Assembly (NCBI GenBank): GCA_047602405.1
Contig: JASGHJ010000002.1
Coordinates: 3,328,001 to 3,392,000 of the forward strand
Length of the DNA stretch: 64,000 bases
Direction: 5' to 3'
Source of the DNA: Anaeromyxobacteraceae bacterium
Lineage (GTDB): Bacteria > Myxococcota > Myxococcia > Myxococcales > Anaeromyxobacteraceae
Shown: piece by piece, positions 36,343 to 39,696 of the stretch
How positions within the stretch are numbered: position 1 is the stretch's first letter
Layout: each line of letters begins with the position of its first letter
Made by a program: the position numbers and the translations under genes
Notes under the pieces: generated by a model
The model's input: only the letters and a program-made list of their open reading frames with translations
Databases searched by the model: none
What the model was told of the DNA's origin: nothing

Positions 36343-37353
36343 TTGTCAACGCACGAGACCGCCCGCGGCCCCTGGCGGCTGACCCTCGTCACGAACCCGG
36401 ACGACTGTAACCTCGCGTGCGCGATGTGCCCCTGCTCGGCCCCGCGCCCCGCAGCCCGGCCGCGCAGGATGGATCCCGCGCTCGCGCTCGCCCTCCTCGA
36501 CGAGCGGCGGGGCTCCCACCTCGTGGAGGTCATCCCCTCCACGATGGGCGAGCCGCTCCTCTGGGCGGGCCTGCCGGCCCTCCTGGACCGCTGCGCCACC
36601 CTCGGCTTCGCCGTGAACCTCACCACGAACGGTACCTGGCCGGGGCTCGGGGTGGCCGGATGGGCGGCGAAGCTGCTCCCGGTCCTGTCCGACGTGAAGG
36701 TCTCCTGGAACGCCGCGACGCGGGCGACCGCCGCCGTCGTGATGCAGGGCCTCGACCTCGCGCGCGCCGAGGCGGACCTCGCGACCTGGGCCGGCCTGCG
36801 CGACGCCCACGCCGCCGCGGGCCACCGCCGCCCGACGCTGTCGTTGCAGGTCACCGTCCAGCGCGCGAACGTGGACGAGGTCCCCGCGATCGTCGCGCTC
36901 GCGGCGCGCCTCCGGGTGGACCGGGTGAAGCTGAACCACGTGCAGCCGCGCCCGGGGCTCGCCGTGACGACGGAAGGCTCCCTGCTCCGCGACGCGCGCG
37001 GCCTCGCGCGCTGGAACCGCGCCGTGGAGGCCGCCCACCGCGCCGCGGAGGCCTCGGCGAGGAACGGCTGGCCGCTGCGCGTCGAGAACGCGGTCCCGCT
37101 CCGCGAGGACCCGGACGACCGGGTCACGAGGGGCCGGTGCCCGTTCCTGGGCAGGGAGGCCTTCGTCCACTTCGACGGCCGCCTCGCCCCCTGCCCTCAC
37201 CCGGAGGCCGCCGCGCTCGGCGCCCTCGGCTCGGTGGCGGACGCGCCGCTCGGAGACCTCTGGGAGTCGGAGGCGTTCCGCGCGCTGCGCGACGGCTGGC
37301 CCTCCCACCCGCTCTGCCGGGCCTGCGCCTTCCGGGCGCCGGGCGGGGCGTGA
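36343..37353 (+). CDS. Radical SAM enzyme with SPASM/twitch domain
   Basis: CNLACAMC, GEPLL, TTNGT; CPFL...DGRLAPC...CRAC; TTG start after GGAGG. Confidence 0.88.
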   Translation: MSTHETARGPWRLTLVTNPDDCNLACAMCPCSAPRPAARPRRMDPALALALLDERRGSHLVEVIPSTMGEPLLWAGLPALLDRCATLGFAVNLTTNGTWPGLGVAGWAAKLLPVLSDVKVSWNAATRATAAVVMQGLDLARAEADLATWAGLRDAHAAAGHRRPTLSLQVTVQRANVDEVPAIVALAARLRVDRVKLNHVQPRPGLAVTTEGSLLRDARGLARWNRAVEAAHRAAEASARNGWPLRVENAVPLREDPDDRVTRGRCPFLGREAFVHFDGRLAPCPHPEAAALGALGSVADAPLGDLWESEAFRALRDGWPSHPLCRACAFRAPGGA

Positions 37354-37368
37354 ACACGCGTGCCCCCG

Positions 37369-37519
37369 CCGTGGGCATCGGTGTCCGTGGGAGCCCTCCC
37401 CGTGGGCATCGGTGTCCGTGGGAGCCCTCACCGTGGGCATTGGTGTCCGTGGGAGCCCTCCCCGTGGGCATCGGTGTCCGTGGGAGCCCTCGCCGTGGGC
37501 ATCGGTGTTCGTGGGAGCC
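37369..37519. repeat. 31-bp tandem repeat, about 4.9 copies
   Basis: CCGTGGGCATCGGTGTCCGTGGGAGCCCTCN starting at 37369, 37400, 37431, 37462 and 37493; no spacers. Confidence 0.95.
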
Positions 37520-37762
37520 AAACGGGCCTCCGCGACAGCGCTTGCTCGGACGGGTTTGAGACGGAACAGATCGCCGGAACCGTGGCTGTTCCACGGCGGT
37601 GATCGCGCAGCACGCCTGCGGACCATGTGCGCGTGACGGCGTCGTGCGCTCGAGCGCACGGCGCCGTCCCCGCGCGATGGTTCCTTGGCCTGCATTGCGA
37701 GATGTGGAGACGGTACCTCGCCCGTCGCTCGCTGCGCGCTGCTGCGGAGGCCCGTATGGCTC
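37515..37762. repeat. 248-nt structured element, unit A
   Basis: Closed by GAGCCAAACGGGCCTCCGC / GCGGAGGCCCGTATGGCTC (18/19 complementary); inverted homolog at 37937-38184. Confidence 0.85.
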
Positions 37763-37936
37763 TCGGGCGTGGAGGACTGACGTCGGCCGTGACTGCTGGG
37801 TGCTGATGAACGACCAACGATGGACGATGGGCGATGGGCGATGGGCGTGTGGCAGTTTGCCCGCCGCATCTTCTTCACCATCAGTTCCGCACTTGCACCC
37901 CAGCATCATCGGCCGGCCTCAGGCCGCTACCTCCGA

Positions 37937-38184
37937 GGGCGAAACGGGCCTCCGCAGCGGCGCGCAGCGAGCGACGGGCGAGGTTCCGTCTCCACATCTG
38001 GGCATTGCAGGCCAAGCGACGAGGGCGTGTGACGGCGCCTGGCGCTGCGCGCAAGGCGTCGTCGCGCGCAACTCGCGTGCAGGCCTGCTGCCACGATCAC
38101 CGCCCTGGAACAGCAACGGTTCCGGCGATCTGTTCCGTCCCAAACCCGTCCGAGCAAGCGCCGTCGCGGAGGCGCGTTTCGCCC
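37937..38184. repeat. 248-nt structured element, unit B (inverted relative to A)
   Basis: Closed by GGGCGAAACGGGCCTCCGC / GCGGAGGCGCGTTTCGCCC (18/19 complementary). Confidence 0.85.
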
Positions 38185-38212
38185 CCACGGCACCGACCGC
38201 CGTCGACCGCTC

Positions 38213-38240
38213 GTCCTTCGACGAGCTCAGGACGAACGGG
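38213..38240 (+). repeat. REP-like repeat, short copy 3
   Basis: GTCCTTCGACGAGCTCAGGACGAACGGG shares the GTCC..TCG...GCTC.GGACGAACGG frame with copies 1 and 2. Confidence 0.6.
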
Positions 38241-38267: not shown

Positions 38268-38913
38268 TCACGCCCGCTCGACGCGGATCGCGTCCTCGAG
38301 CTCGTTCACGGGCGGCGTCGCCGCGCCGGGCTCGCGGGGGAAATGCACCGCCAGGCGGGCTCCGCAGAGCGCGATGGCCTCGACGAACCCGCCGGCGGGG
38401 TCGCCGGTCCCGAGCCGGGCCGTGAGCGCGCGGACGGCCTCGCTCCAGCCCGCCTCGCCAATCTTCTCGTGGATGCCGCGGTCGCCGAGGACGATCGCCT
38501 CGCGCTCGAAGACCGAGGCGAACACGAGCACGCCGGTGCCCTCGGCCGTCCGGTGCAGGCCGTGCTCGTGGAAGGCGCGCAGCGCCCGGGCGTGCACGGC
38601 CTCGTCCATGGAGCGCCGCCCCGCGAGGACCCGCTCGAATCGGATCCCATGCGCCGAGGAGGACGCCCAGGAACCCCGCGGCGAGCTGGACCGCGACGAG
38701 GCCCACCACGCCACCCTCGGGGTGCAGCACGAGCCACAGCCCGGTCGCGAGCGCCCCGAGGGCGAGGCCGCCGCGGGCCCGCGTCTCCGGGTAGGGGTCG
38801 CTCTTCTCGACCACCACCGGCACGATCTGCCCGCGCGAGAGCGCCTCCGCGCGGCGCACCGCCTCCTGCACCCGCGCCCGATCGGCGTCGCCGAAGGCCC
38901 TGTCGAAGTCCAC
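38268..38913 (-). CDS. TPM-domain membrane protein (+1 frameshift at about 38638)
   Basis: AVRRAEALSRGQIVPVV; GLHRTAEGTGVLVF...LGDRGI...NELED. Confidence 0.85.
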
Positions 38914-38924
38914 GCGCGCGCCTC

Positions 38925-39696
38925 CTACCAGCGCCCCGAGGCGCCACCGCCCGAGAACCCGCCGCCACCTCCGGACCAGCCGCCGCCGCCGCCCCCGCCG
39001 CCGAAGCCGCCGAACCCGCCGCCGCCGATCCAGGGGCCGCCGCCACCCCACCAGAACCGGCGCCGGCGCCGGCCGAAGCCGAACACGCCGCGCAGCACCG
39101 AGGTGAGGACGATGAACGCGAGGAACGCCGCGAGCGGGAACTGCCCCGGGCGGCGCGCCGGCTGCGACCGCCGCGGCGCGGGGAGGTCCTGGACGGAGGC
39201 GCCGAGCGCGCTCAGGATTCTGGTGGCCCGCGTCGAAGAGGCCGTCGCCGTAGCGCCCCTCGCGGAAGGCCGGCGCGATCGCGTTGCGGATGATGCGGGA
39301 CGACTGCACGTCGGTGAGCGCGCCCTCGATGCCGCCGCCCACCTCGATGCGGACCGCCCGGTCCTGGACGGCGACCACCACGAGCACGCCGTCGTCGCAA
39401 TCCCGCGTCCCGAGCCGCCAGGCCTCCGCGACGCGCATCGAGAACGCCTCGATGGCCTCACCCTCGGTGGTCGGCACGAGCAGGAGCTGGAGCTGCGGAC
39501 CGGCGCCGCCGTTCGAGGCCTTGCCCGCGCGGGCGAGCTCCTCGAGGCGGGCGACGTCGGCGCGCGCCAGCACGCCCGCGCGGTCGACGACCGGGCCGGT
39601 GAGGGCCGGGACCGCGACCTCCGCGCGTGCCGGCCCGGCGGCGAGCGCCGCGAGGGCGAGCGCGCCCGCGGCCGCGAGGGTGCCGAGGCTGCGCAT
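38925..39696 (-). CDS. TPM-domain protein with Gly-rich tail (+1 frameshift at about 39218)
   Basis: VVDRAGVL, DDGVLVVVA..DRAVRIEVG.GIEG.LTD, GGGGFSGGGASGRW. Confidence 0.88.

Follow-up and report, generated by a model that had tools for sequence, protein, structure and literature searches.

The described systems closest to the element reported here are REPs and the doublets that they form, i.e., REPINs and BIMEs. In the excerpts on which we draw, these are defined by a tetranucleotide and by a RAYT gene that the REP itself flanks (PMC3116915, PMC8266576), and heterodimers are described as common among REP dimers (PMC3733652). A second system is the Ssn family, whose layout, in the available part of its description, is a single-domain GIY-YIG gene flanked by inverted hairpins; there, cleavage of single-stranded DNA by Ssn is demonstrated but transposition is not, and mobilisation by Ssn is only hypothesised (PMC11893778). 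How bacterial palindromic repeats spread and stay folded is an open question, above all for families without a RAYT gene.

The locus lies in a 64-kb window, i.e., the whole stretch of DNA that was analysed (64,000 nucleotides). An earlier, sequence-only reading of this window had picked out two inverted homologues of 248 nt, A and B, in the gap between a radical SAM and a TPM gene. Both were present where it placed them, 85% identical and folding strongly on either strand (z against shuffles of -7.7 and -8.0 for the two strands of arm A, and of -5.1 and -7.9 for arm B), and Pfam identified the neighbours as a radical SAM/SPASM gene and a TPM-domain gene (Table 1). Their extent had to be redrawn: the similarity described as reaching about 13 nt outward and 40 nt inward proved to be a conserved arm of ~295 nt, plus a 13-nt outer lead and a further ~20 nt of inner tail. 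The stems that had been named were found in the sequence; the differences between A and B, taken to be compensatory, are not all so, and arm B has a C.C mismatch in its outer stem and a flipped apical loop.

Table 1. Features of the window element and its immediate neighbours (window coordinates).
Feature	Coordinates	Strand	Evidence or remark
Radical SAM/SPASM gene, left neighbour	36379..37353	+	Pfam PF04055 and PF13186; 3' end toward element
Four extra 31-nt stutter copies	37369..37492	+	Each copies the outer lead with the start of arm A
Outer lead of arm A	37493..37505	+	Degenerate 13-nt lead precedes nearly every arm
Arm A, type a outer stem	37506..37800	+	Profile match, folds, pair counts and typing
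Arm A, core	37515-37762	+	248 nt
Arm A, closing stem	37512-37541 with 37736-37765	+	
Arm A, REP-like local hairpin at outer end	37507..37536	+	Predicted; DNA fold of first 34 nt -6.0 kcal/mol
Arm A, side hairpin	37569-37604	+	
Arm A, central long hairpin	37610..37693	+	Loop TCGA, not the usual GCGNAGC cap
Spacer	37801..37898		Two conserved inner tails flank a variable middle with 7-nt stutter (37818-37847)
Unoccupied variant of IS1111-type target motif	37875..37891	-	Core CT 37883-37884; differs from predicted guides
Arm B, type b outer stem	37899..38192	-	
Arm B, core	37937-38184	-	248 nt
Arm B, central hairpin	38007-38088		GCGNAGC cap flipped to top strand
Outer lead of arm B	38193..38206	-	
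Small-palindrome family copy (33 nt)	38207..38239	-	Faces element; family also flanks small GIY-YIG nuclease gene
TPM-domain reading frame, 3' part of right neighbour	38268..38714	-	Pfam PF04536; 3' end toward element

The stutter copies belong to a tandem repeat (37362-37519; period 31, 5.1 copies, 93%), and comparable stutters occur at other loci. The outer lead of arm A, where the stutter units start, is likely to be the left end of the element. The REP-like hairpin at the outer end of this arm is predicted to be an alternative to the long closing stem. A 9-bp direct repeat surrounds the window copy, within what chance allows. Further to the right, both TPM-region genes (38268-39674) appear to be split by frameshifts; relatives' contigs are without one base at 38638 and 39218, which suggests that the frameshifts are errors of assembly.

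A profile search of its own genome (G000; 98% complete, in two contigs) for further copies found 31 arms at 16 loci, i.e., 15 inverted pairs and one single arm. All 15 pairs share the orientation of the window pair, and 30 of the 31 arms are paired. The repeated unit is a pair of ~700 bp, and the window holds one of the 16 loci. The sequence-only reading had seen neither these loci, nor the polar pair as the repeated unit, nor its targeting by IS110 elements (below). The end hairpin on its own was found in the masked G000 genome, by a scan with a profile of the end, only as stutters adjoining arms. Internally deleted pairs, with only the outer 110-220 nt of each arm left, lie at C2:2545330-2545754 in G000 and at C5:307625-307850 in the same-genus genome G010. 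As a post hoc observation, the 1.95 Mb around dnaA (C1:1-1957000; dnaA at C1:1062236) contains no giant repeat, all 16 loci lying outside it.

Beyond its own genome the repeat was scarce. A DNA search of 41 relatives gave matches in eight genomes at E 0.001, and only those in G000 and G010 extended over more than ~50 nt. In DNA and covariance-model searches alike, the same two were the only positives among 92 family genomes; the covariance model gave two positives among 150 genomes of the order, and a DNA search of 401 genomes of the phylum gave three matches of which two were true, these wider searches scoring few candidates per genome, so that diverged relatives can be missed. The third phylum match was a chance match of 39 nt within a reading frame. 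Sequence-pattern searches of genome contigs returned zero and one match, the latter from a record of the genus Anaeromyxobacter. A similar search of metagenomes returned at least 119 stretches, and among the matches listed one was true: a contig (L131) with one arm, at a site orthologous to a G000 locus. Pattern searches of viral contigs gave two chance matches in coding DNA, and none; the plasmids searched held no copy, and our literature searches found no description of this repeat family. Its occurrence is limited to two genomes and one contig among those searched.

To compare the arms we aligned 32 of them, i.e., 29 of the 31 from G000 (two truncated arms being excluded) and three from G010. 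All are built from a closing stem of 30 bp, a hairpin at the side and a long one in the centre, and there are three types of the outer stem, two of the next stem and three of the hairpin base. The types of the two sides of these helices agree in 31, 32 and 32 of the 32 arms, with the sides up to 260 columns apart, and the nested inner and outer blocks occur in 14 combinations. Normalised mutual information was 0.83-1.0 for paired columns versus 0.27-0.51 between levels. The copies thus exchange inner blocks while their helix sides stay matched; in simulations of random conversion tracts, about 70% of the informative tracts would break a pair. The sides of the apical block, typed with a crude classifier, agree in only 24 of the 32 arms.

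Exactly one type-a arm was found in 14 of 15 pairs (permutation p 0.0017), normally joined to one type-b or type-c arm. This test used 14 pairs from G000 and one from G010, a truncated pair being excluded, though it is also an a plus b pair. In none of 30 cases was the closest relative of an arm its own partner. With one type-a arm in nearly every pair and the partner never closest, what is repeated is a heterodimer with a polarity. Between whole elements the best mean arm identity is 95.5%, so that none is a near-identical copy of another. Distances between left arms did not correlate with those between right arms (Mantel r 0.06, p 0.26), so that it is the polarity and the near-universal pairing that argue for movement of the two arms together; the correlation of right-arm with spacer distances was r 0.25 (p 0.054). 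Block exchange could explain the missing correlation between left and right arms.

Covariation points the same way as helix-side matching. Over 63 named pairs, 90.7% of 2016 cells were paired, and 17 of the pairs change on both sides. The covariation score was 0.200, versus 0.089 for shuffled and at most 0.073 for slid alignments; because the alignment comprises a few subtypes of related copies whose cells are not independent, and the tested structure was derived from the same alignment, this score is not a probability. The linkage of helix sides is a stronger argument for selection on the fold. The earlier suggestion that selection acts on the fold of each unit, rather than on pairing of A with B, has thus held up: arms are never closest to their partners, and helix sides stay matched despite recombination of the inner blocks. 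In predictions of equilibrium folding, pairing of A with B outscored self-folding in 8 of 10 pairs; therefore, the fold of the single arm needs a kinetic state or one in which the arms are separated. The interleaved GGAACAG/CTGTTCC pairing, proposed as a possible pseudoknot or switch, was complete in only 6 of the 20 arms of that subtype, whereas a nested GGAAC/GTTCC hairpin was complete in 17 of the same 20, so that the pseudoknot or switch was not supported. A coding role for the arms was rejected, the indels being out of frame and each frame being interrupted by stops in some of the arms.

Taken together, we consider that this gene-less, two-armed repeat is probably non-autonomous selfish DNA of the REPIN/BIME kind, with unlike arms that are each predicted to fold as single-stranded DNA. 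We envisage that, on a strand exposed on the lagging side or in an R-loop, an arm would fold on itself into a nested hairpin capped by GCGNAGC. A single-strand nuclease that reads hairpins, supplied in trans, would cut at the outer ends, and the pair would be copied elsewhere in a way that leaves no target duplication. Elements would be lost once their arms had ceased to fold, and the unlikeness of the arms, with their position in convergent gaps, would be likely to limit the cost of a 300-bp palindrome.

The reading that survives best beside this one is that the arms function as RNA, i.e., that convergent read-through transcripts each fold their own arm co-transcriptionally, the element being kept by the host to stabilise 3' ends or as an insulator. 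The gene gaps that hold the pairs are all convergent (13 of the 15 by codon bias, one by Pfam and one by reading frame), so that each gene reads the nearer arm in the same sense, and the SpoVR gene upstream of the single arm also reads it in that sense. By comparison, a small palindrome family of this genome (below) lies in convergent gaps in 49 of 158 called contexts. Co-transcriptional folding would also explain why arms fold on themselves despite the stronger pairing of A with B. The strands, however, do not favour RNA. As the sequence-only reading had noted of G-U wobbles, there was no preference: G.T and A.C occupied 106 versus 103 cells of the 32-arm alignment, one invariant G.T neighbouring one invariant A.C. 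Neither strand folds better, and, as RNA, the top strand was the better folder in 12 of the 32 arms. A DNA mini-hairpin cap, GCGNAGC, was present in 27 of 32 arms, 26 times on the bottom strand (N being C in 14, A in 11 and T in one) and once, in arm B of the window, on the top strand. In the excerpted text of PMC13037366, GCGNAGC is described as a DNA mini-hairpin of unusual stability that occurs at single-strand origins; the RNA counterpart of a related tetraloop form is reported to be far less stable.

No promoter or terminator match was found at the arms, and no Rfam family reached its gathering score in the window, the 23 weak matches being generic hairpins (best 47 bits, versus a cut-off of 168); the family is not in Rfam. 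Of 24 sequencing runs listed, all small shares, four were compared with the element; the one RNA run among them gave a single contig of 269 nt, at depth 2, over arm A, too little to bear on expression. The repeat is also missing from 11 of the 16 orthologous sites in G010 and from 90 of the 92 family genomes searched, which argues against an RNA kept by the host, and we regard this explanation as unlikely. Of the two alternatives originally offered, the single-stranded DNA substrate of REPIN or MITE type fits these results; the non-coding RNA is weakened by strand neutrality, the DNA-type cap, multiple copies, restriction to one lineage and the lack of promoter or terminator matches. On our best reading the element is a non-autonomous DNA repeat, REPIN/BIME-like but giant, rather than a structured RNA.

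Which enzyme might move such a repeat? RAYT genes or reverse transcriptases had been suggested as neighbours to look for, and neither was found in that position: no RAYT-like gene carries the ends (20 of the 22 RAYT-like loci of G000 and G010 were scanned, and none had an arm or arm end), and no reverse transcriptase match lies beside an arm. G000 and G010 have eleven RAYT-like matches apiece, and several of these are copies of a single 1.2-kb element that has ends of its own; beside one RAYT-like gene (flank at G000 C2:1325570) is a tandem region with a 150-nt period. A search for IS91-type families gave no matches anywhere, controls included, so that its silence carries no weight.

A small palindrome, of which one copy abuts the window element, leads to another candidate. 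There are 289 strict copies of it in the genome, versus one in 2 Mb of shuffled DNA. It often contains an inserted GNA-capped hairpin and is denser on contig C1, and seven copies form an array with a 157-nt period at C2:3676079-3677037. Inverted copies lie on both sides of a 102-aa single-domain GIY-YIG gene (G000 C1:1892792-1893096), which has five tandem palindromes upstream and one inverted copy downstream; its product has a Pfam GIY-YIG match and no NCBIfam match. The same layout of gene and palindromes was found at four loci of three other genomes (L356, L361, L357 and L358).

The end of the palindrome that faces the GIY-YIG gene also faces the giant element, at 5 of the 31 arm ends of G000 with none reversed, at all five traces in G010 and on metagenome contig L131 (9 of 16 loci overall), and two arms contain the palindrome as an internal module. 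Relative to transcription in tandem gaps it shows no bias of orientation (48 versus 46). Only this palindrome, and not the giant arms, flanks the GIY-YIG gene; in two genomes the cassette and palindrome are present and the giant repeat is absent. Two empty G010 sites hold the palindrome alone, and convergent gaps are in any case a frequent setting for it (49 of the 158 contexts called; a further 131 of the 289 copies were uncalled). The published SRM motif had 72 matches in the genome; the cassette region contains none of them, and none comes to within 100 nt of an arm.

This link is circumstantial, and makes the GIY-YIG cassette the leading candidate mover. If our preferred reading is right, the Ssn-like cassette would be a tentative choice of mover and one of the RAYT-like genes a slightly less likely one, while a lost or other enzyme would come somewhat short of an even chance. 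The fuller proposal, of a polar, two-armed 700-bp single-stranded-DNA element for which the mover is a tiny Ssn-like GIY-YIG nuclease and not a tyrosine transposase, with copies recombining when folded, we hold to be unlikely as a whole. Under it, one exchange between two folded arms would swap both sides of an inner helix, giving nested mosaics with matched sides. If this is true, GIY-YIG hairpin systems would here have a large cargo for the first time, and an RNA-guided IS would be its hyperparasite.

Comparison with G010 bears on the age of the family. At the 16 orthologous sites (flanks 85-98% identical) there were one full pair, two partial pairs and two scars that join the outer ends directly, the rest being without clear trace. 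Shared sites carry other arm subtypes or a reversed arm order, and G010 has no private site. With no private site and with scars, the empty sites may be losses, and gain in G000 is inseparable from loss in G010; nor do the empty sites give exact element ends, because the gaps have turned over. A 675-bp gap in G010, considered as a sister family, was rejected since it contains a gene. The 15 pairs showed no target-site duplication (longest word shared by the flanks 5.4 nt, versus 5.6 nt in controls). The family may be old and decaying.

These results would suit a relic, spread ancestrally by an enzyme now lost and kept by gene conversion together with selection against unstable palindromes. The scars, the want of private sites and the changed subtypes or order at shared sites fit such a history, as do the failure to find a mover among the scanned genes and the absence of near-identical whole copies. 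Conversion would, however, often mismatch helix sides (about 70% of simulated informative tracts), yet these agree in 31-32 of 32 arms, and selection against palindromes would favour losing self-pairing rather than keeping it. We therefore think it rather improbable that the family is only such a relic.

Retroposition was also considered. The make-up of each arm, in which small stems and a single long hairpin accompany the closing stem, is loosely like that of retron RNA, and msDNA-like repeats have reportedly been found in Nannocystis exedens. On this reading the arms would be retroposed copies of a structured RNA, resembling msDNA or a SINE, that a reverse transcriptase had produced and whose 3' tails were stuttered; the inner tails do finish in simple-sequence stutters, and the genome has eight reverse transcriptase matches. 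None of the eight, however, lies beside an arm, and seven belong to near-identical copies, 1.94 kb long, of a group II intron-like element that has a reverse transcriptase frame of 484 aa. Retroposition would, moreover, leave unexplained the polar tail-to-tail heterodimers and the lack of strand bias, and there is no target duplication; it is very unlikely. The intron-like elements are at G000 C1:439597, C1:557811, C1:2073934, C2:769786, C2:1212582, C2:1713502 and C2:1787451, most of them a few bases after a stop codon that is itself followed by TAGG-like sequence.

Four of the 15 pairs enclose a 1470-bp IS110 element of IS1111 type. The copies are 0-2 nt from the first copy, have the core CT and one rebuilt target, and sit in pairs of different arm types. 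The element encodes DEDD and Transposase_20 domains and has sub-terminal inverted repeats, a short core and a 277-nt non-coding right (3') end; sub-terminal inverted repeats with a long right end that carries a 3' bridge RNA are ascribed to the IS1111 group in the available part of PMC11208160. A degenerate target motif occurs eight times in the genome, always beside arms, in the non-hairpin inner tail of the repeat, and four of these occurrences are IS junctions. No unoccupied perfect target is left in G000, the free copies differing from the predicted guides. These guides are two right-end segments that match the target halves and vary with the insertion site across homologues: the left one matched insertion sites at 33 of 40 positions versus 15.0 expected (p 2.5e-5) and the right one at 23 of 35 versus 16.3 (p 0.004), with eight and seven elements, respectively, two near-duplicates and one interrupted copy having been dropped and another being without its left end.

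Homologues of the IS in other genomes have no arms around them, and its protein was not found in viral contigs. One homologue, from another genus (L310:2843-5453), is inserted in an array of GTAG-type REPs that a guide segment matches; in another (L309) a stretch of ~180 nt, itself structured, interrupts the predicted guide region of the right end. For the IS110 the repeat is a landing site, which makes the IS a parasite of the repeat and not its mover; such behaviour is already known.

Classical MITEs have target-site duplications, like ends and a partner transposase with the same ends. Enclosure of a transposase gene by four pairs could suggest a MITE with 300-bp terminal inverted repeats, of which the IS110-containing copies were the autonomous form. 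The insert, however, possesses ends of its own together with a duplication of the CT core, and is near-identical in its four copies, whereas the enclosing arms are 62-70% identical within these pairs; with armless homologues elsewhere and no target duplication, this reading is already largely refuted and very unlikely. A decaying local inverted duplication of no wider meaning, plausible only from the window seen alone, is refuted by the 16 loci, the covariation and the polarity, and we give it practically no credence.

The family is ten times the size of REPs, and since its few copies have clear subtypes, their sequences are enough to reveal selection on the fold, block exchange and polarity. 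With it, the question whether DNA is moved by small GIY-YIG nucleases gains a defined substrate. It is also a case with three levels, i.e., host, repeat and RNA-guided IS, in which the IS fills all perfect targets and the copies left free do not match its guides exactly.

With classical bacterial MITEs, the giant repeat shares short length, absence of genes, inverted ends and a variable middle; it differs in having no target-site duplication, unlike arms that fold on themselves, and no partner transposase sharing its ends. The msDNA-like repeats of Nannocystis exedens are reportedly likewise repeated hairpin DNA in a myxobacterium; no giant arm has a retron beside it. Against the available description of IS1111-group IS110 elements (PMC11208160), nothing essential is different, the passenger being a new member aimed at a new repeat. 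The Ssn/SRM system, as described in the excerpts of PMC11893778, likewise has a single-domain GIY-YIG gene flanked by inverted palindromes, and here the palindrome abuts and enters the giant element; the differences are that the SRM motif is unmatched here and that the nuclease gene has no giant arms on either side.

The giant repeat works like a REPIN or BIME but lacks two features of membership, the tetranucleotide and the flanked RAYT gene. The REP tetranucleotide is usually GTAG in the available accounts; GTAG is found in 0 of 32 giant arms, GTGG preceding the end hairpin in 20 of 32. A RAYT gene lying between copies of its own REP is expected as well, and none of the 20 RAYT-like loci scanned, out of 22, carried an arm or arm end. 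By those accounts, REPs are 20-50 nt long and doublets lie 71-110 bp apart, as against arms of ~300 nt and elements of ~700 bp, at 16 loci rather than hundreds. In common with REPINs, REP dimers and BIMEs (PMC3116915, PMC3733652, PMC8266576, as excerpted), these are gene-less intergenic inverted doublets with preferred heterodimers and tandem end stutters, enriched in convergent gaps and targeted by IS110-family elements. The palindromic units are inverted around a spacer and predicted to form hairpins, with 30 of 31 arms paired. Each giant arm, moreover, consists of two inverted REP-like hairpins around a structured spacer, which makes the giant repeat a doublet of doublets, with fixed polarity.
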